DNA of 64,000 nucleotides from an uncultured Acidobacteriota bacterium (GCA_963700145.1 OY969474.1:4768001-4832000), one strand, 5' to 3'. Positions 8,966-21,938 are shown, numbered from the stretch's first letter. Notes: generated by a model not told the origin, from the sequence alone. Translations and numbers: made by a program.

Positions 8966-10330
8966 ATGCCCCGGACTCTCTTCGACGACCAGGAAGCGGC
9001 ACGGCAGGTCGAGGAGGCCGCGCCGGCGGCGGGGTCGCCGCTCGCCGAGCGGATGCGGCCGCGGACGCTCGAGGAGGTGGTGGGGCAGGAGGCGCTGGTG
9101 GGGGAGAAGGGGTTCCTCCGCCGCGCCATCGCCGCCGACCGGGTGCCGTCGCTCATCTTCTGGGGGCCGCCGGGGTCGGGGAAGACCACCCTCGCCCGCC
9201 TGATCGCCGCCGCCACGTCCTCGCGCTTCGTCCCCTTCTCAGCCGTCACCTCCGGCATCAAGGAGGTGCGCGAGGTGATGGCCGAGGCCGCGCGCCTGCG
9301 CCAGGCGCGGGGCCGCCGCACCCTCCTCTTCGTCGACGAGATCCACCGCTTCAACCGCGCGCAGCAGGACGCCTTCCTCCCCTACGTCGAGCGCGGCGAC
9401 ATCGTCCTGGTCGGCGCCACCACCGAGAACCCCTCCTTCGAGCTCAACGCCGCGCTGCTGTCGCGCACCCGCGTCGTCGTCCTCGAGCCGCTCTCCCCGG
9501 AGGACCTCCTCACCGTCGTCCGCCGCGCCCTCGCCGACCCCGAGCGCGGCGCCGGCGGCGCCGGGCTCGAGATTGCCGAGGAGGCGCTCGCGGCGATCGT
9601 CCAGCTCGCCGGCGGGGACGCCCGCAAGGCCCTGAATCTCTTGGAGCTGGTCGCCGCCGACGCCGCCGAGCGCGCGGCGACCGACGTCGACGCCGAGACC
9701 GTCCGCCGCGTCGCGCAGCGCAAGGTCCTGCTCTACGACAAGGCCGGCGAGGAGCACTTCAACCTCATCTCGGCGCTCCACAAGTCGCTGCGCGACAGCG
9801 ACGCCGACGCCGCCCTCTACTGGCTGGCGCGCATGCTCGCCGCCGGCGAGGACCCGCTCTACCTGGCGCGGCGCATGGTCCGCTTCGCCAGCGAGGACGT
9901 CGGGCTCGCCGACCCCGCGGCGCTGCCGCAGGCGCTCGCCGCCTGGGACACCTTCCACCGCCTCGGCTCGCCGGAGGGGGAGCTGGCGCTGGCGCAGGCG
10001 GCGCTCTACCTGGCGCTGGCGCCCAAGAGCAACGCCGTCTACACCGCCTACGGCGAGGCGCGGCGGACCGTCGAGGAGCGCCCCGCCGACCCGGTGCCGA
10101 TGTCGATCCGCAACGCGCCGACGCGGCTGATGAAAGGGCTGGGCTACGGCGCCGGCTACGTCTACGCCCACGACACCGACGAGGGGGTGGGCGGCCTCGA
10201 CTGCCTCCCCGACTCCCTCCAGGGGACCCGCTTCTACCAGCCGACGGAGCGCGGCTTCGAAGCCGAGCTCGGCAAGCGCCTAGCGGCCTTCAAGGCGTTG
10301 CGCGCGAAGGCGAAGGAGACACGGTCGTGA
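8966..10330 (+). CDS. rarA: Replication-associated recombination protein A (MgsA)
   Basis: PLAERMRP, WGPPGSGKTT, DEIHRFN, GATTENPSF, ISALHKS. Confidence 0.96.
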   Translation: MPRTLFDDQEAARQVEEAAPAAGSPLAERMRPRTLEEVVGQEALVGEKGFLRRAIAADRVPSLIFWGPPGSGKTTLARLIAAATSSRFVPFSAVTSGIKEVREVMAEAARLRQARGRRTLLFVDEIHRFNRAQQDAFLPYVERGDIVLVGATTENPSFELNAALLSRTRVVVLEPLSPEDLLTVVRRALADPERGAGGAGLEIAEEALAAIVQLAGGDARKALNLLELVAADAAERAATDVDAETVRRVAQRKVLLYDKAGEEHFNLISALHKSLRDSDADAALYWLARMLAAGEDPLYLARRMVRFASEDVGLADPAALPQALAAWDTFHRLGSPEGELALAQAALYLALAPKSNAVYTAYGEARRTVEERPADPVPMSIRNAPTRLMKGLGYGAGYVYAHDTDEGVGGLDCLPDSLQGTRFYQPTERGFEAELGKRLAAFKALRAKAKETRS

Positions 10331-11007
10331 AAAAGACGTGCGCTCTCGCCGCCGTCCCCTTGGCCCTCTTCCTGGCGCACTGCCGGCCCAAGAGCGTGGA
10401 GGACCGGGTCGCGGCACTGCCGGAGCTGCCGGCGGAGATCGCCGCCACGCTGGATCCCGAGACCTTGGCGACGAGGATCGTCTCGAACCCCAGTCTGCCG
10501 GTCACGGCCGCGGCCCCGGCAGCGGCGCCCATTCCCTGTTGCACGGTCTCGGAGAAGCGCCATCTGACGGTCAGGTTCCGCTTCACCAAGTGCACCGCGC
10601 CGGTCGGAGATTTCGATCCCGAGGGCGTCCTGACGGAAGGCGGGCCAGGCGGCGCCCGGCCCACCCTGCACCGGCTCACCGAGCTCCGCGGGCGGACGCT
10701 CTCCCCCGTCAGGTTCTGTTTCACCAGGTCGGGTCCGTGGAACGCCGTCTTCACGGAGCTGCGGGCCTGCTCCCCGGCGACGCCGCACCGCACCCTGGCG
10801 ATCTCCGCCCTGGGCGACGTCGTTCATTTCGAGTGGGCGGGCCTCCAGCCCGCTCCGGCCAACGTGCTGGTCCTCAGTTGCCGCACGGAAGGGATCGAGC
10901 GGAGCTTGTGCCCCGGCGCGAGTCTCGACTGTAAGTGCCTCAGTGCGCCGTGCACGGCCCCCGCGGCCTGTCCGTGCCCGCTGGAGCTGCCGTCCGGAGA
11001 TTCCTAG
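10327..11007 (+). CDS. Cys-rich putative lipoprotein, unknown function
   Basis: Signal peptide ending LAHC (lipobox-like); many Cys; GTG overlaps rarA stop. Confidence 0.6.
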   Translation: MKKTCALAAVPLALFLAHCRPKSVEDRVAALPELPAEIAATLDPETLATRIVSNPSLPVTAAAPAAAPIPCCTVSEKRHLTVRFRFTKCTAPVGDFDPEGVLTEGGPGGARPTLHRLTELRGRTLSPVRFCFTRSGPWNAVFTELRACSPATPHRTLAISALGDVVHFEWAGLQPAPANVLVLSCRTEGIERSLCPGASLDCKCLSAPCTAPAACPCPLELPSGDS

Positions 11008-11028
11008 GCAATCGACGAGGAGGAAGCC

Positions 11029-11862
11029 ATGAGCACGACGGGCCGTCGGAGCGTAGCGATTGCGGTCGTCGCCGGCGCGCTGCTGGCGCTGGCGGCGGCC
11101 GAGGTCTCGGCGCAGGAGTGCGAGCGGCGGGTGTGTCGGCCGGGCGACAGGCTGGAGCGGTACCAGGGGCGGTGGGTCTGCGCCCGCGGCAACGTCATCC
11201 GCCGCGCCCCCCCGAACTTTCCCTGCCCCGCCGGCTCCGTCCTGGTCGGGCCGAGCTGCATCGATCGCTGCTGCAAGTCGGCTTGCCCCAGAGGCGGTGA
11301 ATACAAGCCGGGGGGAACGTGTGAAAGAACGGGCTTCGGGGGCGTGATCTCGTACTATCCGGCCACCTGCGACGGGGAAGGGTGGGACCTGTACCCCGCG
11401 ACCGGCTGGTGCCGGCGGCAGAACTGCCCGCCGCGCCGTCCGATCGGGGTCCCGGCGCCGCCGCGCGTCGGGCTGCCGGACCTGGTGATCGAGTCGTTCC
11501 GCATCCAGAGCCGGGAGCAGTGCCGGCCCGGTCTTCCGGTCGTCACCTTCGAGGTGGTCGTGGCCAACCGCGGCACGAGAGCGTTCGGGGGCACGACCAG
11601 CGGCATGGTCCGCGTCATCGACGAGGACGGGGGTTGGGGCGCCGTCGCGGTCCCGCTCGGCGCCGTTCCCCCCGGCGGGAGGAGGGCCGTGGCGGTCCCG
11701 TTCCCCTACCTGACCTCCGCCGCCAGGCACATCACGACCGGCGCGCCTCACCCCTTCAGGGCGACAGTGGATGCCTGGCGGTGGGTCGACGAGGTGAACG
11801 AGGGGAACAACGCGTCGCGGGTCCTCAACGTCGGCGCCCCGAGCGGCTGTCCGCCGGCTTAG
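11029..11862 (+). CDS. Secreted Cys-rich protein with C-terminal CARDB-like Ig domain
   Basis: SD GAGGAGG; signal peptide ...VSAQ; 12-Cys N-domain; LPDLVI...VANRG...VDEVNEGNN CARDB signature. Confidence 0.75.
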   Translation: MSTTGRRSVAIAVVAGALLALAAAEVSAQECERRVCRPGDRLERYQGRWVCARGNVIRRAPPNFPCPAGSVLVGPSCIDRCCKSACPRGGEYKPGGTCERTGFGGVISYYPATCDGEGWDLYPATGWCRRQNCPPRRPIGVPAPPRVGLPDLVIESFRIQSREQCRPGLPVVTFEVVVANRGTRAFGGTTSGMVRVIDEDGGWGAVAVPLGAVPPGGRRAVAVPFPYLTSAARHITTGAPHPFRATVDAWRWVDEVNEGNNASRVLNVGAPSGCPPA

Positions 11863-11874
11863 GAGGGTCCCGCC

Positions 11875-13092
11875 TTGCGACGCTTCCTGCTTTGCGCGCT
11901 GGTTTTCACGCTGTTCTCTGCGTCGGCACCCGCCCCGCCCGTCCTGGTGGTCCGCCCCGGGCGGATCATCGAAGTGGAGACCGGGCGGGCGCACGCGGGT
12001 TGGGTCGTGCGGGTCGAGGGAGAGCGGATCGCGGCCGTCGGCCCGGCGGCGAAGGTCGCCGTGCCGAAGGGGGCGCGCGTCATCGACCTTCCCGGCGCCA
12101 CGCTGCTGCCCGGGTTGATCGACGTCCACGTCCACCTCACCTGGGACGACGGCCGGTCGGCGGCCAGCGCCGGCGCCGCGCGGCGCACGCTCGCGGCGGG
12201 CTTCACCACGGTGCGGAGCTGCGGCGCGCCGGGGGGCGCGGACCTCGTCCTGCGCGACGCCATCGCCCGCGGCACCGTCGAGGGCCCGCGCGTGGTGGCC
12301 GCGGGGGCGCCGCTGGGCTTCGCCGGCGGCGTCTGCGCGCAGGTGTTCCCGGGCGAGGGCGTCTTCGAGACCGCCGAGCAAGCGCTCGCCCACGTCCGCC
12401 GGCTCGCCGCCGCCGGCGCCTCGTGGGCGAAGGTCTGCGCCGGCGGCGGCGTCCTGCCCGGCCCCGACGACGAGGCGACGGTCGAGGTGCCGCCGCCGAT
12501 CCTCGCCGCCATCGTCGCGGAGGCGCACCGGCTCAAGCTCAAGGTGGCGGCGCACGCGCAAGGCCCGGCGGCGGTCGTGGCGGCGGTGAAGGCCGGAGTG
12601 GACTCGATCGAGCACGGCTCCCTGCTCGACGAGGCGGCGGCGCGGCTGATGATCGACCGCGGCACCTGGCTGGTGCCGACCGTCGCCCGGCTGCGCTGGA
12701 GCCGCGAGGGGGCCGAGGCGTCCGGCGCGCCGCCCGAGGCGCTGGCGCGCGCCGCGGCCGAGGCCCGCCAGCGGCTGCGGCGGGCGATCGCGCTCGGCGT
12801 ACCGGTGGCGCTGGGCAGCGACGCCACCGTCATCCCGCACGGCCTCAACGCCCGCGAGGTCGCCGCCCTGGTGGAGCTGGGGATGACGCCGCCGCAGGCG
12901 CTGCGCGCCGCCACCGTGGAAGCCGCGAAGCTCCTCGGTTGGAGCGACCGCGTCGGCTCGCTGCGCCCGGGCCACTTCGCCGACCTGCTCGCCGTGGCCG
13001 GCGACCCCCTGGCCGACCCGGCGGCACTTGAGAAGGTGCTGCTCGTCGTCAAGGGCGGTGTGGTGGTGCGCGAGCCCGCGGCGGCGCCTTGA
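11875..13092 (+). CDS. Exported metal-dependent amidohydrolase (Xaa-Pro dipeptidase-like)
   Basis: LLPGLIDVHVH, AAHAQG, SIEHG, GSDA metal ligands; SD AGGAGG before TTG start. Confidence 0.85.
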   Translation: MRRFLLCALVFTLFSASAPAPPVLVVRPGRIIEVETGRAHAGWVVRVEGERIAAVGPAAKVAVPKGARVIDLPGATLLPGLIDVHVHLTWDDGRSAASAGAARRTLAAGFTTVRSCGAPGGADLVLRDAIARGTVEGPRVVAAGAPLGFAGGVCAQVFPGEGVFETAEQALAHVRRLAAAGASWAKVCAGGGVLPGPDDEATVEVPPPILAAIVAEAHRLKLKVAAHAQGPAAVVAAVKAGVDSIEHGSLLDEAAARLMIDRGTWLVPTVARLRWSREGAEASGAPPEALARAAAEARQRLRRAIALGVPVALGSDATVIPHGLNAREVAALVELGMTPPQALRAATVEAAKLLGWSDRVGSLRPGHFADLLAVAGDPLADPAALEKVLLVVKGGVVVREPAAAP

Positions 13093-13137
13093 TGACAGAC
13101 TAGCCGCACCAAGCGACTTCACGAGGGGTTTGCGGCC

Positions 13138-14493
13138 ATGCCCGACTTGCAGGACGGGTTCTGGGACAACCTCCTGGACTACATCCAGGACCGGACCGTC
13201 GTGCCCGTCATCGGCTCGGAGCTCGTCACGGTCCGGGAAGGCGACCGGGACGTGCCGCTCTACCGCTGGGTGGCGCAGCGACTGGCCGCCGACCTCGCGC
13301 TGCCCACCGCGGAGCTTCCCGCGGGCTTCGAGCTCAACGACGTCGTGTCGCTGCACCTGCGCCGGCGCGGCGAGCGGGAGGAGCTCTACGCCCAGATCCA
13401 CCGCATGCTGCGCAACGCCGCGCCGGCGCCGCCCGAGCCGTTGCGGGCGCTGGCCGGCATCCCGGGGTTCGACCTCTTCGTCTCGCTGACCTTCGACTCG
13501 CTGCTGGCGGGCGCCCTCGGCGGCGCGCGGCAGATCGCGTACTCGCCGAGCACCGTCCGCGACCTCCCCGGCCCGAAGGCCGAGCTGCGGCAGCCGGTGG
13601 TGTTCCACCTCCTGGGGCAGGCGTCGGCCTCCCCGGACTACGCGATCTGCGACGAGGACCTGCTCGAGTTCCTGCACGCCATGCAGGACAAGCAGCGGCA
13701 GCCCAAGACGCTGTTCGACGAGCTGCGCGGCAACCATCTCCTCATCCTCGGCTGCAGCTTCGGGGACTGGCTGGCGCGCTTCTTCCTGCGCACCGCCCGG
13801 AGCCTCGAGCTGTCGCAGAAGCGCCGGCGTTGGGACGTGCTGGTGGGCGAGCGGATCGCGCACGACCCCGGGCTGGCGCTGTTCCTCGAAAGCTTCAGCT
13901 CCGACGCCCGGGTGGTGCCGATGACCGCGGCAGAGTTCGTCATCGAGCTGGCGGCCCGCTGGTCGGCCACGCATCCCGCGCCGGCGCCGGGCGCGGAGCC
14001 CGCGGCACGCGACGCGGGCGAGGGCGGCAAGAGCGTCCCGCAGGGGGCGGTCTTCGTCAGCTACGCGCACGAGGACGTCGACGCCGCCCTCAGGCTGGCC
14101 GAGGGCCTGCGCGCGGCCGGCCTGGAGGTCTGGTTCGACAAGAACGCCCTGCAGATGGGGGACGACTGGGCGCGCAGCATCCGGCGCGGCATCGAGCGCT
14201 GCTCGCTGTTCCTGCCGGTGATCTCACGCCAGGCCGTGAGCGAGGAGAACCGGCGCCGCTACTTCTGGCGGGAGTGGAACGACGCCGACGACTTCGCGCG
14301 CGGGATGGCGCCGGACGAAGTGTTCATCGTCCCCGTGGTGATCGACGACACGCGCATCGATCGCGCCCCGCTGCCGGACTCCTTCAAGCGCGCGCAGGGC
14401 AGGAACCTGCCGGGCGGCGATGTCGCGCCCGAGGTCGCCGAGCTGCTCAAAGAGCGCGTCCGCGACTTCCACCGCCGGCAGCGGGCGGCCTGA
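13138..14493 (+). CDS. SIR2-like (degenerate) domain fused to a C-terminal TIR domain
   Basis: VVPVIGSEL / FVSLTFDSLL / VFHLLG / LILGCSFGDW align with sirtuin-like motifs; VFVSYAHED...VWFD...GDDW...FLPVIS...FWREW...IVPVVID is TIR_2. Confidence 0.85.
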   Translation: MPDLQDGFWDNLLDYIQDRTVVPVIGSELVTVREGDRDVPLYRWVAQRLAADLALPTAELPAGFELNDVVSLHLRRRGEREELYAQIHRMLRNAAPAPPEPLRALAGIPGFDLFVSLTFDSLLAGALGGARQIAYSPSTVRDLPGPKAELRQPVVFHLLGQASASPDYAICDEDLLEFLHAMQDKQRQPKTLFDELRGNHLLILGCSFGDWLARFFLRTARSLELSQKRRRWDVLVGERIAHDPGLALFLESFSSDARVVPMTAAEFVIELAARWSATHPAPAPGAEPAARDAGEGGKSVPQGAVFVSYAHEDVDAALRLAEGLRAAGLEVWFDKNALQMGDDWARSIRRGIERCSLFLPVISRQAVSEENRRRYFWREWNDADDFARGMAPDEVFIVPVVIDDTRIDRAPLPDSFKRAQGRNLPGGDVAPEVAELLKERVRDFHRRQRAA

Positions 14494-14500
14494 CCGCGAG

Positions 14501-17500
14501 ATGGCCGCGCTGCAACGCCAGGGCCTGAGCCCCGACAACCCCTGGCCCGGGCTCGATCCCTTTGACGAGACGGACCGGAAGTACTTCCACGGCCGGGAGG
14601 CGGAGTCGGGCGAGCTGCTGCGGCTGGTCCGCCGCGAGCTGCTGACGGTTCTGTTCGGGCGTTCCGGGCTGGGCAAGACCTCGCTGCTCAAGGCCGGGCT
14701 GTTCCCGCTGCTGCGCGGGCAGGACGGCTTGCCGGTCTACGTGCGCCTCGACCATGGCGAGGGCGCGCCGGCGCTAAGCGAGCAGGTGCTGCGCGCGCTG
14801 CAGGCGGCGTGCGATGCCGACCGGGTGCAGGCGGCGCGGCCCGCCGCGGACGAGAGCCTCTGGTCCTTCTTCCACCGCCGCGACGCCGAGTTCTGGAGCG
14901 AGCGCAACCGCCCAGTGACCCCGGTGGTCGTCTTCGACCAGTTCGAGGAGGTCTTCACGCTCGGCCAGGAATCCGAAGCGTCCCAGAGCCGCTCGGCCGC
15001 CTTCCTGGCGGAGCTGGGCGACCTGGTGGAGAACCGTCCGCCCGACGCGGTCAGAGAGGTGCTGGAAGCCAAGCCCGCGGCGGCGCGGCGCTTCGACTTC
15101 AAGCGCTCGACCGCCAAGCTGGTGCTCAGCTTCCGCGAGGACTTCCTGGCCGAGATGGAAGGGCTCAAGGAGCGGATGCCCTCTCTCATGTACAACCGCT
15201 TCCGCCTGCTGGCGATGAGCGGCGCCCAGGCCTACGACGTCGTCACCTGCCCCGGCGGGCACCTGGTGGACGACGACGTCGCGCGGCGGATCATCCGGCT
15301 GGCCTGGAAGAACGAGCCCAGCCCCCCCGTCGAGCCGGCGGAGTTCCCCAAGATCGAGATCGACCCGGCGTTGTTGAGCGTGGTGTGCAGCGAGCTGAAC
15401 CACAAGCGCCGGCAGGCGCAGCCGCCGCTCGAGCGCATCACCCCCGCGCTGCTGGAGGGCGCCGACCGCGAGATCCTCGCCGGCTTCTACGAGCGCGGCA
15501 TGGCCGGCCTCGATCCCCGCGTCCGGGCGTTCGTCGAGGACGAGCTGATCACCGACCGCGGCTTCCGCGACAACCACGCCCTGGAGGACGCGCTGGCCCT
15601 GCCCGGCGTCACCGCCGAGGCGCTCGACGCGCTGATCCGGCGCCGCCTGCTGCGCGTGGACGAGCGGCAGAGCGTGCGCCGGCTGGAGCTGACCCACGAC
15701 GTGCTGGCCCGCGTGGTCAAGGACAGCCGCGACAACCGCCGCGCCCGCGAAGCGGAGGAGGCGGCGGCGGCCCGGGAGCGGGCGGCGCTCGCGCAGCAGC
15801 GGCGCAACCGGCGCAACGCCGCGTTCGTGCTCGCGGCGGCGGTCGTGGTGGTCGTGCTCGCCGGCCTCGCGACGTGGTTCGCCTGGCAGGTCAGGGACCA
15901 GAAGCGCCGCGCCGCCGAGCTGCTGACCGCGGCGGAGGGCACGCGGCTGGTGGCCAACGCCGATCGGCTGGAAGAAAACGACTACGACGCCTCCCTGCTG
16001 GTCAACGTGGAGGCGCTCGGCGTGGCGCCGACGCTCGACGCGCAGGCGGGGCTCCTCCGGCGCTTCGTCAGCCACCCGCACCTGGCGGCGTTCATGCCGG
16101 CGGCCGAGGCAGTCTTCGGCGTCGCCTTCAGCCCGGACGGCAAGCGGCTGGCCGCGGCGAGCGGGGACCAGACCGTGCTGTGGGACGTGGACGGCCGCAA
16201 GCCGGCGGCGACTCTGGCGGGGCACGACGACGCCGTCCTCGGCGTCGCCTTCAGCCCGGACGGGCGGCGGCTGGCCTCAGCGAGCCGGGACGGGCGCGTG
16301 ATCCTGTGGGACGTGGACCGCCGCGAGCCGCTGGCCTCGCTCGCGGGGCACACGGCCGATGTCTTCAGCGTCGCCTTCAGCCCGGACGGCAAACGGCTGG
16401 CCTCGGCGAGCCGGGACGAGACCGTGGTCGTCTGGGACGTGGAAAGCCACCAGCCGCTGGTCTCGCTCCGCGGGCACGAAAACACGATCTTCGGCGTCGC
16501 CTTCAGCCCGGACGGCAAGCGGCTGGCCTCGGCGAGTGGAGACCAGACCGCGATCCTGTGGGACCTGGAGAGCCGCCGGCCGCTGGCCACGCTCCGGGGC
16601 CACGAGGCCCTGGTCTCCAGTGTCGCCTTCAGCCCGGACGGCCGGCGGCTGGCCACGGGAAGCTGGGACGAGGACGTGATCGTGTGGGACGTGGACAGCG
16701 GCCAGCAGCTCGCCTCGCTGGAGGGGCACAAGGCCGCGGTCGTCGGCGTGGCCTTCAGCCCGGACGGGAAGCGGCTGGCCTCGGCGAGTCGGGACTGGAC
16801 CGCGATCCTCTGGGACGTGGACAGCCGCGAGCTTCTGGCCTCGCTGGAGGGGCACAGGAACGAGGTCACCGGCGTCGCCTTCAGCCCCGACGGCCAGCGG
16901 CTGGCCACGTCGAGCCTCGACCGCAGCCTGGCCCTGTGGGAGGTGGAGCGCCGCCGGCCGCTGACCACGCTGCGGGGGCACGAGAGCACGGTCTACGGCG
17001 TCGTCTTCAGCCCGGACGGCAAGCGGGTGGCCTCGGCGAGCGAAGACAAGACGGTGATCGTGTGGAACGTGGCCGGCCGTACACCGGCGGCCACGCTCAA
17101 GGGGCACAAGGATACGGTCATCAGCGTTGCCTTCTCCCCCGACGGCGAGCGGCTGGCTTCGGTGAGCGAGGACAAGACGGTGATCGTGTGGGACGTGGCC
17201 GGCCGCCGGCCGCCGGTGACGCTGCGGGGGCACGCGGCCGAGGTCTACGGCGTCGCCGCCGGCCCGGACGGACTACTGGCCTCGGCGGGTGAGGACAAGA
17301 CGGTGATCCTGTGGGATGTCGACGGCCGCCGGCCGCAGGCCAAGCTGGAGGGGCACGGGGGGGCGATCTACGACCTGACCTGCAGCCCGGACGGCAAGCG
17401 GCTGGCCTCGGCGAGCCGGGACAAGACCGTGATCCTGTGGGACGTCGCCGGCCGCCGGCTGCAGGCCAAGCTGGAGGGGCACAAGGACGCGGCCGAAGGC

Positions 17501-17965
17501 GTGGCCTTCAGCCCGGACGGCAAACGCGTGGCGTCGGGGAGCGGGGACAAGTCCGTCATCCTGTGGGACGTGGACGGCCGCCAGCCGCTGGCCACGCTCC
17601 GGGGGCACACGGACGCGGTCTTCGGCGTCGCCTTCAGCCCGGACCGCAAGCGCCTGGCCTCGGCGAGCTGGGACGGGACCGTCATTCTGTGGGACGTGGA
17701 GAGCCACCAGCCGCTGGCGACGCTCGCCGGCCACAAGGGCGGGGTCTTCGGCGTGTCCTTCAGCCCGGACGGCAAACGCCTGGCCTCGGCGAGCCAGGAC
17801 AAGACCGTCATCCTGTGGGACCTGGACCCGGCCGTCCTCGCGGCCGAGGCCTGCCGCACGGCCAACCGCAACCTGACCTGCGAGGAGTGGCGCAACTACA
17901 TCGGCGCCGACAAGCCCTACCGCGAGACCTGCCCGGGGCTGCCTGGGCCCGGGCGGTGCGATTGA
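14501..17965 (+). CDS. nSTAND1-type P-loop NTPase, single TM helix, 14 WD40 repeats
   Basis: NPWPGLDPF..YFHGRE, Walker A GRSGLGKTS, Walker B VVVFDQFEE, SFREDF, ELTHD; hydrophobic AFVLAAAVVVVVLAGLATWFAW; GH..WD repeats; C-terminal ACRTANRNLTCEEW. Confidence 0.9.
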   Translation: MAALQRQGLSPDNPWPGLDPFDETDRKYFHGREAESGELLRLVRRELLTVLFGRSGLGKTSLLKAGLFPLLRGQDGLPVYVRLDHGEGAPALSEQVLRALQAACDADRVQAARPAADESLWSFFHRRDAEFWSERNRPVTPVVVFDQFEEVFTLGQESEASQSRSAAFLAELGDLVENRPPDAVREVLEAKPAAARRFDFKRSTAKLVLSFREDFLAEMEGLKERMPSLMYNRFRLLAMSGAQAYDVVTCPGGHLVDDDVARRIIRLAWKNEPSPPVEPAEFPKIEIDPALLSVVCSELNHKRRQAQPPLERITPALLEGADREILAGFYERGMAGLDPRVRAFVEDELITDRGFRDNHALEDALALPGVTAEALDALIRRRLLRVDERQSVRRLELTHDVLARVVKDSRDNRRAREAEEAAAARERAALAQQRRNRRNAAFVLAAAVVVVVLAGLATWFAWQVRDQKRRAAELLTAAEGTRLVANADRLEENDYDASLLVNVEALGVAPTLDAQAGLLRRFVSHPHLAAFMPAAEAVFGVAFSPDGKRLAAASGDQTVLWDVDGRKPAATLAGHDDAVLGVAFSPDGRRLASASRDGRVILWDVDRREPLASLAGHTADVFSVAFSPDGKRLASASRDETVVVWDVESHQPLVSLRGHENTIFGVAFSPDGKRLASASGDQTAILWDLESRRPLATLRGHEALVSSVAFSPDGRRLATGSWDEDVIVWDVDSGQQLASLEGHKAAVVGVAFSPDGKRLASASRDWTAILWDVDSRELLASLEGHRNEVTGVAFSPDGQRLATSSLDRSLALWEVERRRPLTTLRGHESTVYGVVFSPDGKRVASASEDKTVIVWNVAGRTPAATLKGHKDTVISVAFSPDGERLASVSEDKTVIVWDVAGRRPPVTLRGHAAEVYGVAAGPDGLLASAGEDKTVILWDVDGRRPQAKLEGHGGAIYDLTCSPDGKRLASASRDKTVILWDVAGRRLQAKLEGHKDAAEGVAFSPDGKRVASGSGDKSVILWDVDGRQPLATLRGHTDAVFGVAFSPDRKRLASASWDGTVILWDVESHQPLATLAGHKGGVFGVSFSPDGKRLASASQDKTVILWDLDPAVLAAEACRTANRNLTCEEWRNYIGADKPYRETCPGLPGPGRCD
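16105..17825 (+). repeat. 14 tandem ~126-bp WD40-coding repeats with high internal DNA identity
   Basis: GTCGCCTTCAGCCCGGACGGC...CTGGCCTCGGCGAG...TGGGAC recurs at ~126-bp spacing. Confidence 0.9.
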
Positions 17966-17981: not shown

Positions 17982-19820
17982 CTACGGGAGGCTCGCGCTG
18001 GCCGCGGTGGCGCCGGCGGCGCGCACCTCGGCGATCAGCTCGTCACGGGTGATCAGCTCGCCGAAGAGGTGGGGGCCGCGGCCGGGGCGGTAGAGGAGGT
18101 AGAAGGGGATGCCGTAGCGGCCGTGGGCGGCGAGGAAGGCGCGAATCTCCTCGTCCTTGTTCGTCCAGTCGGCCTTCATCGGCACCACGCCGTGCTCGCG
18201 GAAGGCGCCGGCCACCTCCGGCGTCTCCAGCACCCACCGCTCGTTGACCTTGCAGGTGAAGCACCAGTCGGCGGTGACGTCGACGAAGACCGGCGTGCCG
18301 CGCGCGGCGAGCGCCTGGGCCCGCGCGCCGTCGAACGGCACCCAGGCGATCAGCTTGCGCGCCGGCTCGACGCCGTTGCCGGTCGCCGCGCCCGCCTCGC
18401 CGGCGACGGCGAGGAGGAGCGGCGCCACCGCCGCCGCCAGCACGCCGACGGCGGCGACGCGCCGCAGGGCCGACCCGACGACCGCGCGGTGGCGCATCCA
18501 GACCAGGAGGCCGAGAGCGAGGAGCGCCAGCTCGATCGCCGCGCGCCGCTCGGCCGAGACCTGCGACGCCAGCACGTAGAGCAGCCAGACCGCGGCCGCG
18601 GCGAGGAAGAAGCCCATCGTCCCCTTGAGGGTGTCCATCCACGGTCCCGGCTTCGGCAGCAGGCGCGCGGCGCCGGGCCAGGCGGCGAGGAGCAGATAAG
18701 GCAGTGCCATACCGACGCCGATCGCGGTGAAGACCGCGATCACGATGCCCGTGTCCTGGCCGAGCGCGAAGCCTAACGCCGTACCGAGGAAGGGGGCCGA
18801 GCAGGGGGTCGCCATGAGAGTGGCGAAGAGGCCGGTCGCGAAGTGCCCCGCCACCCCCTCGCGCGGCCCGCCGCCGGCGAGGCGCGCGACCCGCCAGGGC
18901 AGGGTGATCTCGAAGAGCCCCCAGAGGTTGAGGCAGAAGAGGACGACGACGACCGCCAGGAAGGCGACGAAGCCCGGCCGCTGGAACTGCACCCCCCAGC
19001 CGACCGCCGAGCCCGCGGCGCGCGCCGCGACCGCCGCCGCGGCGAGCCCCCAGAAGGAGACCAGGATGCCGGCCGCGGTGGCGAGCGAGCCGCGCACCAC
19101 CTCCCGCCGCCCCTGCCCGGCGCTCTGCACCAGGCCGAAGACCTTGAGCGAGAGGACGGGCAGGACGCAGGGCATGGCGTTGAGGATGAGGCCGCCGAGG
19201 ATGCCGAGGAGGATGGCGAAGCCGCCGGCCGAGAGCGCAGCGCGGCGCGAGACGGCGGTGGCCGCGGCGCCCGCGCCCGCCCCGGCGTCTGGCGGCGCCG
19301 CGGCGCCGGTGGCCTCGCCGCCGCTGCCGACCGTGAGGTCGAGCTTGGCGGTCGCCTCGGTCGGCGGAAGGCACTGCTGGTCGTCGCAGGCCTGGTACTG
19401 CAGGGTGGCGACGACCGGATAGCCGCCGGCCGCGGCACCGGCCGGCACCGCGAGCTCGGCGTGGATCTCGACCGTCCCGTCGTAGACCGCCAGCGGCTCC
19501 TCGGCGAAGGTGAACTTCTGTTTCTCCGCCTCGGGGTAGGTGATCGCGCCGGCCTTCCACCCCTCGGGCAGGGTGAGGGCAAGCTCGGTGGGGATCAGGT
19601 AATCGAACGTCGGGACGTTGGCGTTGACGTGCCACCCGTCCTCGACGGTCACGCGCGCCACGACGACGGCGGCGCTTCCCGGCGCGTAGGCGGTGCGGTC
19701 GGCGGTGAGGGTAAGGGAGGCTTTTTCGAGGTCGGGAGGCTGCGCGAAGCCCGCCGGCGCCACGGCGAAGGCGAGGGCGGCGAGAGCTAGGACGGCGGCG
19801 CGGAAACGGGGCGTGCGCAT
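17982..19820 (-). CDS. dsbD: Thiol:disulfide interchange protein DsbD family
   Basis: N-domain YQACDDQQCLPP, TM LNAMPCVLP and ATPCSAPFLG, thioredoxin ADWCFTCK. Confidence 0.9.
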   Translation of the reverse strand: MRTPRFRAAVLALAALAFAVAPAGFAQPPDLEKASLTLTADRTAYAPGSAAVVVARVTVEDGWHVNANVPTFDYLIPTELALTLPEGWKAGAITYPEAEKQKFTFAEEPLAVYDGTVEIHAELAVPAGAAAGGYPVVATLQYQACDDQQCLPPTEATAKLDLTVGSGGEATGAAAPPDAGAGAGAAATAVSRRAALSAGGFAILLGILGGLILNAMPCVLPVLSLKVFGLVQSAGQGRREVVRGSLATAAGILVSFWGLAAAAVAARAAGSAVGWGVQFQRPGFVAFLAVVVVLFCLNLWGLFEITLPWRVARLAGGGPREGVAGHFATGLFATLMATPCSAPFLGTALGFALGQDTGIVIAVFTAIGVGMALPYLLLAAWPGAARLLPKPGPWMDTLKGTMGFFLAAAAVWLLYVLASQVSAERRAAIELALLALGLLVWMRHRAVVGSALRRVAAVGVLAAAVAPLLLAVAGEAGAATGNGVEPARKLIAWVPFDGARAQALAARGTPVFVDVTADWCFTCKVNERWVLETPEVAGAFREHGVVPMKADWTNKDEEIRAFLAAHGRYGIPFYLLYRPGRGPHLFGELITRDELIAEVRAAGATAASASLP

Positions 19821-19895
19821 CGCCCCGCATGATACCAGCGGGCGGATCACGCCAAATTGACGCCCCGAAGCGCTCCAACCTGGAGTTTACCGGCC

Positions 19896-20070
19896 CATCT
19901 CGGAGATTGGCGGCCGATCTCGGAGATCGGCGGACGGTCATGGAGATCGCCGGACGATCACGGAGATGGAGCGCCGATCACCGTAACTGGGCCCTCCGTC
20001 ACCGAGATTGCGCGCCGATCACGGAAATCGGGCGACGATCTCGGAGATGAAGCGTTGATCTCGGAGATGG
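19896..20070. repeat. Array of 9 palindromic cores (GATC[A/T]CGGAGAT) at 20-bp period
   Basis: Cores start at 19896, 19916, 19936, 19956, 19976, 19997, 20017, 20037, 20057; variable 8-9 nt linkers. Confidence 0.8.
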
Positions 20071-20301: not shown

Positions 20302-20657
20302 TGTCATCCCGAGCGTGAGCGAGGGATCTGGGGGAAGGGTGGGCGCGAAGACCAACCAGCATCGCGCCGCCCCCCGCCCAGATCCTTCGCTCTCGCTCAG
20401 GATGACAAGGGAGGGGTTGTTCCCCCTGTTTCTGTCGGACGTCACTTCAGAGATTCGAGTCATGGCGCCGCGTGATGTGCCGGGCCAGAGGCCCGCGAAG
20501 CGGCGCGTTCGGGTGAAGGGGCCACCGTGCGTTAGCGGCGAAGCCTCTACCCGCTAACCAGCCACCACCCTTTCCAACCAGGACCCGCGAAGCGGGCGCG
20601 CCTCTTCGCGGGCCGGGTGGCCCGGCATCTCACGCGGCACTATCCGTCCCGCGCGGA
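20302..20657 (+). repeat. Composite dispersed repeat copy 1: REP-like hairpin (20302-20407) plus MITE-like long hairpin (20462-20643)
   Basis: TGTCATCCCGAGC...GCTCAGGATGACA; highly similar inverted copy at 28745-29087. Confidence 0.85.
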
Positions 20658-20697
20658 GAGGTCCGGGCGGGGGGCTCCCCTGATACGATCCCGCCCC

Positions 20698-21870
20698 GTG
20701 AACCTAGCCCAGCGCGTCGCCAGGATGAGCGAGTCGGCGACGTTGCAGGTCTCGCGCAAGGCGGCGGAGTTGCGGGCGCGGGGGGTGGAGGTTGTGGACT
20801 TCGGGGCCGGCGAGCCGGACTTCGATACCCCTCCGATCGCCGTCGAGGCCGCGCGTCAGGCGCTGGCGCGGGGGTTCACCCGCTATACCAATTCGAGCGG
20901 CATCCCCGAGCTGCGCGCTGCCCTCGCCGACTCCCTCCGTCAGCGCCACGGCGCCCCCTGGGCCCCCTCCCAGACCGTCGTCACCGTCGGCGCCAAGGCC
21001 GCCCTCTTCGAGCTCGCGCTGGCCCTCTTCGAAAGCGGCCAGGAAGTCGTCATCCCGTCGCCCTGCTGGGTCAGCTTCCCCGAGCAGGTGCGCTTCACCG
21101 GCGCCGAGCCGGTTGCCGCGCCGACCGCCATCGCCGACGGCTTCCGCATCCACGCCGAGGCCGTCCTCGACGCCCTGACCCCGCGCACCCGCGCCGTCCT
21201 CCTCAACTCACCCTGCAACCCGACCGGCGGCGTCGTCGGCGCCGAGGATCTGCGGGCCATCGTCGAGGAAGCCGCCCGGCGCGGCGTCCTCGTCATCTCC
21301 GACGAGACCTACGAGCGCTTCCTCTACGACGGCGCGCCGCACGCCAGCGCCGCGGCGCTCGCCGCCGAGTTCCCGGAGACCGTCGTCCTCGTCGGCTCCT
21401 TCTCCAAGACCTACGCCATGACCGGCTGGCGCATCGGCTTCCTGGCTGGGCCGCCGGCCATCGTGCGCGCGGTCGAGAACGTGCAGAGCCACGCCACCTC
21501 CAACCCCACCTCCTTCGCCATGGTCGGCGCCCTCGAGGCGCTGCGCGGCGCCGAGGAGGCGGTCGGGCGGATGATCGCCGAGTACCAGTGGCGGCGCGAC
21601 TACCTGATCCCGCGCCTCAACGCCCTGCCCGGCGTCGTCTGCCCGCCGCCGGCCGGGGCCTTCTACGCCTTCCCCGACGTCTCGCGCTGCTACCGCGACG
21701 GCCGGCGCGGCTCGATCGCGTTTTCCGAGTTCCTGCTCGAGCGGGCGCGGGTGGCGGTGGTGCCGGGCGAGGCCTTCGGCGCCGACGAGCACGTCCGCAT
21801 CTCCTTCGCCTGCTCGCGCGAGGCGCTGGAGTGCGGGCTGCGGCGCTTGGCCGACGTGCTCGCCGACTAG
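20698..21870 (+). CDS. PLP-dependent class I/II aminotransferase (aspartate aminotransferase-like)
   Basis: GAGEPDF, NSPCNPTG, SDETY, SFSKTYAMTGWRIG; GTG start 8 nt after TACGAT. Confidence 0.92.
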   Translation: MNLAQRVARMSESATLQVSRKAAELRARGVEVVDFGAGEPDFDTPPIAVEAARQALARGFTRYTNSSGIPELRAALADSLRQRHGAPWAPSQTVVTVGAKAALFELALALFESGQEVVIPSPCWVSFPEQVRFTGAEPVAAPTAIADGFRIHAEAVLDALTPRTRAVLLNSPCNPTGGVVGAEDLRAIVEEAARRGVLVISDETYERFLYDGAPHASAAALAAEFPETVVLVGSFSKTYAMTGWRIGFLAGPPAIVRAVENVQSHATSNPTSFAMVGALEALRGAEEAVGRMIAEYQWRRDYLIPRLNALPGVVCPPPAGAFYAFPDVSRCYRDGRRGSIAFSEFLLERARVAVVPGEAFGADEHVRISFACSREALECGLRRLADVLAD

Positions 21871-21938
21871 CGTCCAGGGGCCCGATCCGGCACGCCGCTC
21901 GCAAGCGCCTCGCTCGCATCCGACCGTGGAGGAATGAG

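Follow-up and report, generated by a model that had tools for sequence, protein, structure and literature searches.

What kind of system is formed by two adjacent genes of an uncultured Acidobacteriota bacterium, one encoding a SIR2-TIR protein and the other a membrane-spanning STAND NTPase with WD40 repeats, and on which side of the membrane would it sense its cue? The window analysed here is a stretch of 64,000 nt from this bacterium (GCA_963700145.1 OY969474.1:4768001-4832000), and the two-gene module occupies positions 13138-17965. To our knowledge, the bacterial STAND/NLR immune sensors characterised so far act in the cytoplasm and carry their own effector. The reading that we favour, with modest confidence, is that the pair is a mobile NLR-like (STAND) conflict or immune module, in which an extracytoplasmic sensor would trigger oligomerisation of the NTPase and thereby engage a TIR NADase in trans by way of a dead SIR2 adaptor.

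Organization of the locus

Both genes are on the plus strand. Gene A (13138-14493) encodes a protein of 451 amino acids with SIR2_2 and TIR_2 domains (Pfam), and gene B (14501-17965) a protein of 1154 amino acids in which an nSTAND1 NTPase is followed by one membrane helix and then by 14 WD40 repeats; 7 bp (14494-14500) separate the stop codon of A (TGA) from the start codon of B (ATG). The start of gene B at 14501 is backed by orthologues in which the NTPase profile begins at residue 1. The pair is flanked by rarA/MgsA (8966-10330) and by dsbD on the minus strand (17982-19850; DsbD_N, DsbD_TM and Thioredoxin_7). Coordinates and Pfam thus agree with an earlier note, made from the sequence, that had described, between rarA and dsbD, two co-oriented genes with 7 bp between them. 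The nSTAND1, SIR2_2 and TIR_2 assignments of that note all exceed the Pfam cut-offs as well: nSTAND1 (PF20703) matches residues 14-421 of B (102.2 bits against a cut-off of 27.1; 6.4e-29), SIR2_2 matches residues 113-234 of A (42.6 bits against 24.5), and TIR_2 (PF13676) matches residues 305-407 of A (73.4 bits against 28). The neighbours of the pair in the window are of housekeeping type (rarA, an amidohydrolase, dsbD and an aminotransferase), so there is no defence-island signal at this locus.

Pairing of the two genes

In 77 of 80 genome loci retrieved with A, the next gene downstream is of B type and lies on the same strand; of the other three, two end at a contig edge, and the third (L093) has a B-type frame that is already open ahead of A. 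Retrieval with B gave 61 metagenome loci with at least 1300 bp of upstream room, of which 60 have a SIR2-like plus TIR gene upstream, and a partial A was present in 14 of the 17 loci with less than 1300 bp. The phylum sample contained four B-type loci besides that of the window, in 4 of 201 genomes, each with an A-type gene directly upstream. Since the same pair recurs in independently retrieved loci, the arrangement is not due to chance, and the pairing is near-obligate whichever gene serves for retrieval; that A and B occur together in other genomes, which the earlier note had set beforehand as a test of its proposal, is borne out. The pairwise identities of A and of the NTPase of B are correlated (r = 0.91), a value reached by none of 2000 label permutations. 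Of 77 related loci, 26 have a 4-bp overlap between the two genes and 19 a spacing of 0-25 bp. No third conserved gene was found at the pair loci. A search with A for longer proteins returned only 10 TIR-TPR proteins, which share the TIR domain, and no fused SIR2-TIR-STAND form; this is weak evidence against the existence of a fusion.

The two proteins may also bind each other. Modelling of the A-B complex, which the earlier note had suggested, gave a score of 0.39 against 0.00 for the best control, a weak pass, with at least 43% of contacts shared between runs and a partner pLDDT of at least 75. Of 157 solved complexes, 116 reached the pass mark, as did 2 of 215 mismatched pairs, and at scores of 0.60 or less only 18 of the 157 solved complexes passed, together with both of the passing mismatches. 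By this calibration, a weak pass is wrong in most cases if the pairing was not already likely. The score above the controls favours the interaction proposed in the earlier note, and the weakness of the pass tells against it.

Gene A: a SIR2-like domain joined to a TIR domain

The gene A product has no hydrophobic segment and is predicted to be cytoplasmic; its AlphaFold model has a pLDDT of 86.9. The SIR2-like domain, the proposed adaptor, comprises residues 1-282 (13138-13983). Its best match in both sequence and fold is ThsA, with a profile match at E 1.9e-14 and BcThsA as the first Foldseek match (E 5e-12), followed by the Avs5 SIR2-STAND protein, KomC and DSR2. Profile alignment to ThsA places Thr118 (13489-13491) at the position of the catalytic Asn (TTNYD) and Leu159 (13612-13614) at that of the His (MHG). 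Across 43 A homologues, the Asn column holds Thr (33), Ser (6), Cys (3) or Ile (1) and the His column holds Phe (21), Leu (20), Met (1) or Tyr (1), and neither Asn nor His occurs at its position in any of them. With the ThsA catalytic residues absent from the homologues, the domain appears to be catalytically dead, and the term "degenerate SIR2" of the earlier note is apt. A histidine two residues ahead of the canonical position (His157) is kept in 34 of the 43 homologues and leaves room for residual SIR2 chemistry. In the same genome, the SIR2-only partner of another membrane nSTAND1 protein retains TTNYD and KMHG, which suggests that an active SIR2 effector was turned into an adaptor after the TIR domain was added.

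The TIR domain comprises residues 301-451 (14038-14490), with a TIR_2 match of 3.9e-21 for the TIR part alone, and matches AbTIR and other bacterial TIR structures in sequence. In known TIR domains, the catalytic Glu is at the start of helix C. In the AlphaFold model of A, Glu379 (14272-14274) lies in the helix after strand C, and this residue and the motif FxSYAxED are invariant in all 43 homologues. Glu379 is therefore presumed to be the catalytic Glu on the grounds of position and invariance only, because the HMMER alignments of the A TIR domain to solved TIR structures stop short of it. The TIR effector domain of the earlier note is well founded in the TIR_2 match and the invariant Glu, and A may be a NADase.

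The resemblance to ThsA, which reads the product of the TIR protein in type I Thoeris, has another potential meaning. Within the same architecture, the TIR domain could be a Thoeris-like generator of a cyclic ADP-ribose-type messenger, to be read by the dead SIR2-like domain or by an effector encoded elsewhere. The invariant residues of the SIR2-like domain (G26, D120, G160, D174, G205 and W211) could line a ligand pocket, and TIR-based signalling systems of bacteria are diverse (10.64898/2025.12.03.692087). We consider this unlikely, given that neither A nor B has a Pfam match to SLOG, Macro or any other domain known to bind messengers, that the SIR2 catalytic residues needed by ThsA are absent, and that the loci supply no conserved gene that could encode a further effector.

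Gene B: NTPase, membrane helix and WD40 array

The nSTAND1 STAND NTPase module (residues 14-421) is encoded at 14540-15763. As its profile starts at residue 14, B has no N-terminal effector, in agreement with the earlier note, and almost all of the best 150 B family representatives begin at the NTPase. In terms of the tripartite STAND/NLR organization, B has the C-terminal repeat sensor and lacks the N-terminally fused effector. The Walker A (GLGKT, residues 56-60, 14666-14680) and Walker B (DQFEE, from 14936, within VVFDQFEE, residues 143-150) motifs are intact, and G56, G58, K59, S61, D146, Q147, E149 and E150 are invariant among 34 homologues.

The one hydrophobic helix of B is predicted to span the membrane at residues 440-462 (15818-15886; hydropathy 2.68), between the NTPase and the WD40 repeats, and is flanked by QQRRNRRN and QVRDQKRR. 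It is followed by 14 Pfam WD40 stretches (16082-17839), so that the single helix and the 14 repeats of the earlier note are both recovered; this region is the predicted extracytoplasmic sensor. The corresponding tandem array (16112-17827) has a period of 126 bp and 13.7 copies, and the 14 repeats presumably form two 7-bladed propellers. Mean pairwise identity among the repeats is 59%, with variation clustered at few positions. Between orthologues, the NTPase is approximately 80% identical and the WD40 part 62-65%, and even among close orthologues the number of repeats is 14, 13, 9 or 7, or the whole sensor is replaced.

Distribution and genomic context

Homologues are found in Acidobacteriota, Cyanobacteria, Methylococcales, Nitrosomonas, Nitrospira, Verrucomicrobia, Planctomycetes, Gemmatimonadota, Geobacter and Binatia, and sequence comparison indicates a two-gene unit that is mobile across at least ten phyla. 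The clade of B comprises 2584 clusters at 50% identity (E <= 1e-30). An orthologue of approximately 80% identity was found in only 3 of 150 other genomes of the class sample, all of another family, and the flanks of the orthologues have no genes in common with those of the window. From this patchy occurrence and the lack of flanking genes common between genomes, the pair is judged accessory and mobile, as its accessory placement in the earlier note had implied. Three genomes of the same family were compared for an empty site; their flanking proteins are approximately 47% identical and synteny is not shared, which left no way of defining an insertion site. On viral contigs, a scan with the NTPase alignment of B gave 5 weak matches of 25-30% identity, none of them a close relative. 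When flanking ORFs were compared with PADLOC (E <= 1e-10), defence-type neighbours (CHAT/caspase, TIR, patatin and helicases) were present in 8 of 16 sampled loci and absent from the other 8.

That half of the sampled loci, like the window itself, have no defence-type neighbour may be taken to favour a transmembrane receptor of a non-immune kind, which would use the TIR output for physiology, as in the response to envelope stress, the recognition of kin or of other cells, or the death of cells during development in soil bacteria. The copies in Thermoanaerobaculia are also highly conserved (77-93% over the 120 best protein clusters), and the set of ectodomains (WD40, TPR and FGE-sulfatase) is shared with Planctomycetota receptor Ser/Thr kinases (PMC11032199). 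We give such a role little credence, since the pair is patchily distributed, apparently transferred horizontally and without conserved synteny, several paralogous pairs are present per genome, sensors are swapped and repeat numbers changed among close relatives, and the NTPase family and the TIR and SIR2 domains are typical of conflict systems (PMC8195603).

Membrane topology and the domains beyond the helix

One helix follows the NTPase in 137 of 148 B family representatives, and it is missing, by a hydropathy threshold, from 3 of 59 complete relatives. Lys and Arg together average 6.2 in the N-terminal flank of the helix and 3.1 in the C-terminal flank, and the N-terminal flank has more of them in 135 of 142 family representatives. 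In relatives paired with A, the domains after the helix include cytochrome c, Phage_lysozyme, FGE-sulfatase and RHS; one such relative (L063), with an NTPase 84% identical to that of B, carries two CxxCH motifs in a di-haem cytochrome c. Di-haem cytochrome c and lysozyme function only outside the cytoplasm. The positive-inside rule, together with the cytochrome c, lysozyme and RHS domains of relatives, therefore places the sensor of B outside the cytoplasm: B is probably a single-pass protein with its NTPase N-terminal and inside and its WD40 sensor C-terminal and outside, which favours the possibly periplasmic propeller of the earlier note. In the wider clade, PPC is also among the domains after the helix. 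What counts against this topology is that the clade also has, in this position, some domains normally found in the cytoplasm (FHA, CHAT, ankyrin and the ribosomal L12 C-terminal domain). A cytoplasmic WD40 array, with the helix as a mere anchor, was rejected as being at odds with both the single-pass helix and the flank charges.

It is highly improbable that the domain after the helix is instead a localisation module or an effector acting on the envelope, with the cue sensed in the cytoplasm by A or the NTPase. Action on the cell wall is conceivable for the Phage_lysozyme, RHS and cytochrome c domains of relatives, and for an NTPase entry of the Kaur et al. 2021 supplement whose depositors labelled it a GH19 chitinase, but the commonest domains after the helix, WD40, TPR repeat scaffolds and FGE-sulfatase, are the usual STAND sensors (PMC10907252; 10.64898/2026.01.04.697583), and the WD40 array of the window has no enzymatic domain.

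Proposed mechanism

In the favoured reading, that of a mobile STAND conflict or immune module, B would be a single-pass inner-membrane protein with its nSTAND1 NTPase in the cytoplasm and its variable C-terminal sensor in the periplasm. An extracytoplasmic cue, for which part of a phage, a cell-wall fragment or an effector of a competitor are candidates, would bind or cluster the ectodomain of B, and the NTP-bound NTPase modules would then oligomerise beneath the membrane. The product of A would be the effector in trans, its dead SIR2-like domain docking on the NTPase oligomer, and the copies of A gathered in this way could assemble their TIR domains into an active NADase, draining NAD+ to the point of cell arrest or death.

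More tentatively, and with some doubt on our part, the module may represent a class of bacterial pattern-recognition receptor, in which danger is sensed outside the cytoplasm, STAND proteins are clustered across the membrane in an NTP-driven manner, and a SIR2 pseudo-enzyme adaptor loads the TIR NADase. The cues could then be tail or lysis proteins of phages, fragments of the wall or effectors that a competitor delivers to the periplasm, perceived before, or without, entry of any foreign molecule into the cytoplasm. The SIR2 pseudo-enzyme would act like the TIR adaptor of animals, and the whole would be a prokaryotic counterpart of the Toll-like receptor layout, built from NLR parts.

If the proposed mechanism is true, it extends STAND logic in three ways, with a sensor across the membrane, an effector in trans and a SIR2 enzyme domain reused as an adaptor, and the module could be a new branch of bacterial innate immunity. 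Even as a physiological receptor, the module would amount to a transmembrane signalling device of a new type. In the libraries and literature searched, this large module family of many phyla has neither a name nor an experiment.

Relation to known systems

No system-specific model of PADLOC-DB v2.0.0 covers the greater part of A or of B: gene A matched 14 models, ThsB included, all through the TIR domain only, and gene B matched HEAT-ARM_XIII through its WD40 repeats, with one weak match (4.7e-4). No name or description of the pair was found in the literature searched on nSTAND1, STAND, TIR/SIR2 and membrane or periplasmic NLR-like systems. The supplement of Kaur et al. 2021 does tabulate an operon "TIR+DrHyd -> nSTAND1+TM+BetaPropeller". 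The suggestion of the earlier note that the system may be uncharacterised holds as far as PADLOC models are concerned, but the architecture, with a two-domain TIR-type gene upstream, has already been tabulated. The tabulated operon is like the present one in its PF20703 NTPase, in the label that fits B, in gene order with the two-domain TIR-type gene directly upstream, and in overlapping phyla (Acidobacteria, Verrucomicrobia, Cyanobacteria and Planctomycetes); its "TIR+DrHyd" gene is a candidate counterpart of A by architecture and gene order. In supplement file 1 of Kaur et al. 2021, "nSTAND1+TM" occurs 461 times, "TIR+DrHyd" 103 times and "SIR2+TIR" 0 times, and that file hence records neither that the first domain is SIR2-like nor that it has decayed catalytically. 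The main text of Kaur et al. 2021 has nSTAND1 once, and none of its passages with "membrane", "transmembrane" or "extracytoplasmic" concerns nSTAND1. No organism names of A loci were found in the supplementary file of Kaur et al. 2021, and the best 120 matches to the Vicinamibacterales copy include no Luteitalea proteins.

Avs/AVAST and bacterial NACHT systems likewise combine an effector, a STAND NTPase and a C-terminal repeat sensor, with effectors directed at NAD+, and the SIR2 domain of Avs5 (9jap, 9nc9) matches the SIR2-like domain of A in structure (E ~1e-9). Avs and NACHT proteins are cytosolic and carry the effector N-terminally on the same chain, whereas the effector A is encoded by a separate gene; compared with Avs, the SIR2 domain of A appears catalytically dead, the NTPase of B belongs to another clade, a membrane helix lies between NTPase and sensor, and none of the PADLOC models for Avs matches. 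Thoeris, too, brings together a SIR2 fold of the ThsA type and a bacterial TIR domain. In contrast to Thoeris, A fuses both domains, SLOG and Macro are absent, the SIR2 domain is without Asn and His, and the partner is a STAND NTPase; against the NCBIfam model of Thoeris type III ThcB4, gene A scored 14.8 bits, the cut-off being 220. Membership of Thoeris or Avs was rejected because their defining features are absent (PADLOC, NCBIfam and the catalytic columns).

Animal Toll-like receptors have their own TIR domain, an LRR ectodomain and no NTPase, and use a separate TIR-bearing adaptor. The module would resemble them in layout only, by analogy, in its outside repeat sensor, single helix and cytoplasmic TIR signalling; it differs from them in having TIR on the partner A only, a WD40 ectodomain and an assembly presumed to be NTP-driven. 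Single-pass receptor Ser/Thr kinases of Planctomycetota and other bacteria, with WD40, TPR or FGE-sulfatase ectodomains and predicted periplasmic sensing, resemble B and its relatives in layout, with a nucleotide-using module in the cytoplasm, a single helix and these three types of ectodomain in common (PMC11032199). The module here differs from them in consisting of a STAND NTPase with a TIR partner, and there is no sequence relationship beyond the repeats.

Other sequence features of the locus

Two ORFs on the minus strand were rejected. One (18043-19941), a candidate for dsbD, has no Pfam match and overlaps the dsbD ORF given above. The other, an antisense ORF of 1278 amino acids (10234-14070), likewise lacks a Pfam match, overlaps with four supported genes and was taken to be an artefact of high G+C content. 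Between 12800 and 18200, there were no promoter-like sites and two terminator-like sites, both on the opposite strand, with no excess over shuffled sequence. Gene B ends in a C-terminal cap (17840-17962) with four conserved cysteines (1118, 1127, 1144 and 1153); a motif search found the cap in 15 of 65 complete B ORFs, 14 of which have the four-Cys form on inspection by eye.

Organization of the gene pair

The earlier note had described two co-oriented genes 7 bp apart between rarA and dsbD, the second encoding a STAND protein that lacks an N-terminal effector and in which a single membrane helix separates the NTPase from 14 WD40 repeats; this observation is confirmed. Gene A (13138-14493, + strand) encodes a 451-aa protein with SIR2_2 (residues 113-234; Pfam, 8.4e-11) and TIR_2 (residues 305-407; Pfam, 2.9e-20) domains, and its TGA is separated by a 7-bp spacer from the ATG of gene B (14501-17965, + strand), which encodes 1154 aa. 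The start of gene B at 14501 is supported by orthologues in which the NTPase profile begins at residue 1; an alternative in-frame ATG at 14420 would run into gene A. With the first 520 residues of B as query, the nSTAND1 match (PF20703, 6.4e-29) spans residues 14-421, and therefore no effector domain stands ahead of the NTPase. Both nucleotide-binding motifs of B, Walker A (GLGKT, residues 56-60) and Walker B (DQFEE, residues 146-150), are intact, and neither varies across 34 homologues. A hydrophobic helix (core residues 440-462, hydropathy 2.68, flanked by QQRRNRRN and QVRDQKRR) is followed by the 14 WD40 repeats identified by Pfam, which correspond in the DNA to 13.7 tandem copies of a 126-bp unit, and by a 41-residue C-terminal cap with four cysteines.

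The flanking genes are rarA/MgsA (8966-10330) and dsbD (17982-19850, - strand), the latter convergent with gene B. Between rarA and gene A lie two ORFs of 226 and 277 aa (10327-11862, + strand), for which no Pfam match at E <= 0.001 was found, and then an amidohydrolase gene. The G+C content around the pair is 72-75%, and an antisense ORF of 1278 aa (10234-14070, - strand), which has no Pfam match and lies opposite four supported genes, is most likely a high-G+C artefact. Elsewhere in the window, a 741-aa ORF (21588-23813, + strand) matches Peptidase_M2, the angiotensin-converting enzyme family, very strongly (1.1e-228); its start overlaps the end of an aminotransferase gene (20617-21870), and the true start is probably later.

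A degenerate SIR2-like domain and a conserved TIR domain

The best solved relative of a profile built from six A-type proteins is ThsA (E 1.9e-14). Thr118 of A aligns to the Asn of the ThsA TTNYD motif and Leu159 to the His of MHG, which we take to be the catalytic residues of ThsA. Across 43 A homologues, with identity down to 23%, the Asn column contains Thr (33), Ser (6), Cys (3) or Ile (1), and the His column Phe (21), Leu (20), Met (1) or Tyr (1), so that Asn and His are missing from their respective columns in all 43, in agreement with the earlier description of the SIR2 domain as degenerate. A histidine two residues ahead of the ThsA-His position (His157) is retained in 34 of the 43, and G26, D120, G160, D174, G205 and W211 of the SIR2-like domain are invariant. 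Because the AlphaFold model of A (pLDDT 86.9, pTM 0.62) matches BcThsA (E 5e-12), EcThsA, the Avs5 SIR2-STAND protein, KomC and DSR2, the first domain of A is assigned to the defence-type SIR2 fold, probably with its canonical chemistry lost.

In the TIR domain, by contrast, an FxSYAxED motif, Asp334 and Glu379 are all invariant in 43/43 homologues. In the AlphaFold model Glu379 sits in the helix after strand C, presumably the site of the catalytic Glu in TIR NADases. Since HMMER alignments to solved TIR domains end ahead of Glu379, its equivalence to the catalytic Glu is inferred from its conservation and modelled position. A rival reading is that the TIR of A is a Thoeris-like signalling TIR.

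Conservation of the pair

A search with the A alignment against one genome per species yielded 80 loci from many phyla, and 77 of these have a B-type NTPase gene (a homologue of gene B) immediately after A in the same orientation. Of the three exceptions, two are at a contig edge, and in the third (locus L093) the B-type frame is already open ahead of A. Among the 77, a 4-bp overlap of the two genes is seen in 26 loci, a spacing of 0-25 bp in 19 and a larger gap in 6; in the other 26 the start of B was over-extended upstream by ORF calling. In the reverse direction, the B NTPase alignment retrieved 78 metagenome loci (35-83% identity). Where at least 1300 bp was available upstream of B, SIR2-like and TIR domains were found there in 60 of 61 loci, both being absent from the remaining one (L161), and a partial A was found in 14 of the 17 loci with less room. 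B-type genes at E <= 1e-40 occur in 4 of 201 genomes of a phylum sample, each locus with A upstream. The neighbourhood conservation that the earlier note had proposed to examine is evident from both sides, and no third conserved gene was found in the flanks of the A/B loci. Over 34 loci, pairwise identities among the A proteins correlate with those among the B NTPases (r = 0.91, a value reached by 0 of 2000 label permutations); because related sequences have a common history, this shows co-inheritance and no more.

Prediction of a complex between A and residues 1-440 of B, each supplied as an alignment, which the earlier note had also proposed, gave a weak pass: 0.39 (runs 0.43, 0.33 and 0.39), against 0.00 for the best control. 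At least 43% of contacts are shared between the runs, and the partner pLDDT is at least 75. Of 157 solved complexes, 116 clear the pass mark, as do 2 of 215 mismatched pairs; at scores <= 0.60 the passes comprise just 18 of these solved complexes together with both passing mismatches. The prediction lends weak support to binding of A to B, a small addition to what gene order already makes likely.

Membrane topology and the C-terminal part of B

An exhaustive protein search with residues 1-520 of B returned 23424 representatives at E <= 0.001 and 2584 at E <= 1e-30, and nearly all of the best 150 begin at the NTPase. Of these, 148 reach a length of 470 aa or more, and 137 of the 148 show exactly one hydrophobic segment at residues 400-620; five lack one, and the other six have either several segments or a single one at a different position. 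Over 142 representatives, Lys+Arg averages 6.2 in the 15 residues preceding the helix and 3.1 after it; the N side has the higher count in 135 and the lower in 2, with 5 ties. According to the positive-inside rule, the positively charged flank of a membrane helix is cytoplasmic; the NTPase of B is therefore predicted to be in the cytoplasm and the putative C-terminal sensor outside, as the earlier note had suggested in calling the sensor possibly periplasmic.

The domains that follow the helix in relatives agree with this orientation, with the exceptions of FHA and CHAT. In one A-paired locus (L063:3899-6754), with an NTPase 84% identical to that of B, cytochrome c-type domains, which contain two CxxCH motifs, take the place of the WD40 repeats. 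Haem is attached to CxxCH motifs only outside the cytoplasm, and this protein is a STAND NTPase joined to what is probably a periplasmic haem protein. Other A-paired relatives without WD40 have an FGE-sulfatase domain (L108), RHS repeats (L124) or, in a 657-aa protein of Synechococcus sp. WH 5701 (L064:8374-10347), a terminal Phage_lysozyme domain after the helix; in 13 of the 19 such relatives no Pfam match was found after the helix. Among the neighbours of the Synechococcus gene, PADLOC models match a helicase, a patatin-like phospholipase and a TIR protein of large size. The wider clade has TPR, FGE-sulfatase and PPC domains after the helix, and also FHA and CHAT domains, which are usually cytoplasmic and are at odds with an outward-facing C-terminal part. 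Another B-type protein (L077:7813-10290) ends in a ribosomal protein L7/L12 C-terminal domain (2.8e-24), which is odd beyond a helix. Of 65 complete B ORFs, 15 match a C-terminal cap motif, by eye in the four-cysteine form in 14; the four cysteines would suit disulfides outside the cell, which is suggestive only. The trio of WD40, TPR and FGE-sulfatase after a helix is shared with Planctomycetota single-pass Ser/Thr kinases, in which, in passages of PMC11032199, these domains were predicted by the authors to be periplasmic.

The WD40 part appears to evolve as a sensor would. Between orthologues the NTPase part is ~80% identical, whereas the WD40 part is 62-65% identical. Among the window's B and 13 close relatives (complete B ORF, A at least 69% identical), there are 14 repeats in eight proteins, 13 in two, 9 in one and 7 in two, and in one relative a cytochrome domain replaces the repeats. 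The repeats of the window's B have a mean identity to each other of 59%, with variation at few positions. An ectodomain serving as effector or anchor, not as sensor, is a rival reading of the same region.

Proposed function and comparison with catalogued systems

As far as sequence analysis goes, the earlier interpretation of a split receptor and effector is supported, and the pair is classed as a putative membrane-spanning NLR/STAND-TIR conflict system in which the TIR is encoded in trans and carried by a SIR2 pseudo-enzyme adaptor. From general knowledge of STAND proteins and TIR NADases, we infer that a cue would bind or cluster the outward-facing sensor, that the NTPase modules would oligomerise beneath the membrane, that the dead SIR2-like domain would dock A on the NTPase platform, that proximity of A copies would assemble an active TIR NADase, and that NAD+ loss would then halt the cell. 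Alternatively, the pair may be a non-immune receptor. Of 16 sampled loci, 8 have flanking ORFs with PADLOC matches at E <= 1e-10 (CHAT/caspase, TIR, patatin-like phospholipase, helicases and others), whereas the other 8 have none, so the defence-island signal is mixed; the window's own neighbours of the pair are not defence genes.

No model for the pair is present in PADLOC-DB v2 or NCBIfam. The name nSTAND1 comes from Kaur et al. 2021 (PMC8195603), where a single passage of the main text introduces it, and the passages with 'membrane' or 'extracytoplasmic' do not concern it. By term search of supplementary file 1 of that paper, 'nSTAND1+TM' occurs 461 times, and the file lists operons such as 'TIR+DrHyd -> nSTAND1+TM+BetaPropeller' from Acidobacteria, Verrucomicrobia, Bacteroidetes, Entotheonella and Thioploca, with a listed entry also from PCC 7336. 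The upstream protein is labelled TIR+DrHyd there, whereas A has SIR2_2 and TIR_2, and 'SIR2+TIR' has 0 occurrences in that file. Judged by table labels, the 'TIR+DrHyd -> nSTAND1+TM' operons are very probably the A/B family with its first domain otherwise labelled, an operon type already catalogued in that file, but unnamed. The term 'SIR2' does not occur in Kaur et al. 2020 (PMC7159879). In a preprint by Kibby et al. (bioRxiv 2022.07.19.500537), it is stated that multi-TM NACHT proteins may sense intramembrane or periplasmic signals; the pair is not described in passages of that preprint, of a 2026 STAND survey (10.64898/2026.01.04.697583), of a TIR survey (10.64898/2025.12.03.692087) or of a ParA preprint (10.64898/2026.10.19.760177).

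Distribution and related modules

A protein search with A gave 911 hits, of which the best 120 clusters are 77-93% identical, with named sources that are Thermoanaerobaculia or Acidobacteriota MAGs. In a class-level sample of 151 genomes, orthologues occur in only three besides the window's own; these three belong to another family, and three genomes of the window's own family have none. No genes common to the window's flanks and the 19-kb surroundings of the three orthologous copies were found. The nearest copies outside Acidobacteriota (58% identity) are in Synechococcus sp. WH 5701, a Cyanobium MAG and a MAG labelled Rhizobium. By this distribution the pair is judged to be accessory and mobile.

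The window's genome contains at least six nSTAND1-type loci. A second A/B pair, 27-32% identical (L043:4698-11953; G000:C1:44697-51952), consists of a SIR2_2+TIR_2 protein of 428 aa, which shares 27% identity with A, and a B-type protein of 1988 aa encoded immediately downstream of it; the latter has nSTAND1, one helix, and then WD40, ankyrin and Sel1 repeats. There are also a fused TIR-nSTAND1 protein (601 aa; L126:5877-7682, - strand), a DUF4062-nSTAND1-WD40 protein (1203 aa; L128:3870-7481, - strand) and a DUF4062-NACHT/nSTAND1-TPR protein (999 aa; L129:5504-8503, + strand). At L127:1134-4632 (G000:C1:1134-4632, - strand), a 343-aa SIR2-only protein that keeps GAG, TTNYD and KMHG is encoded immediately ahead of an nSTAND1 protein of 828 aa whose membrane region is multi-pass (RDD-like). 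The SIR2-only protein looks like a catalytically active ancestor-type of the SIR2-like/TIR partner. The simplest history would be that an active SIR2 effector was paired with a membrane nSTAND1 protein, that a TIR domain was added, and that the SIR2 domain then decayed to an adaptor. A degraded module was also noted in another genome (L042:8089-10745; G130:C12), with SIR2-like and TIR domains in separate ORFs of 269 and 196 aa and an NTPase that is broken into two ORFs and has neither membrane helix nor sensor.
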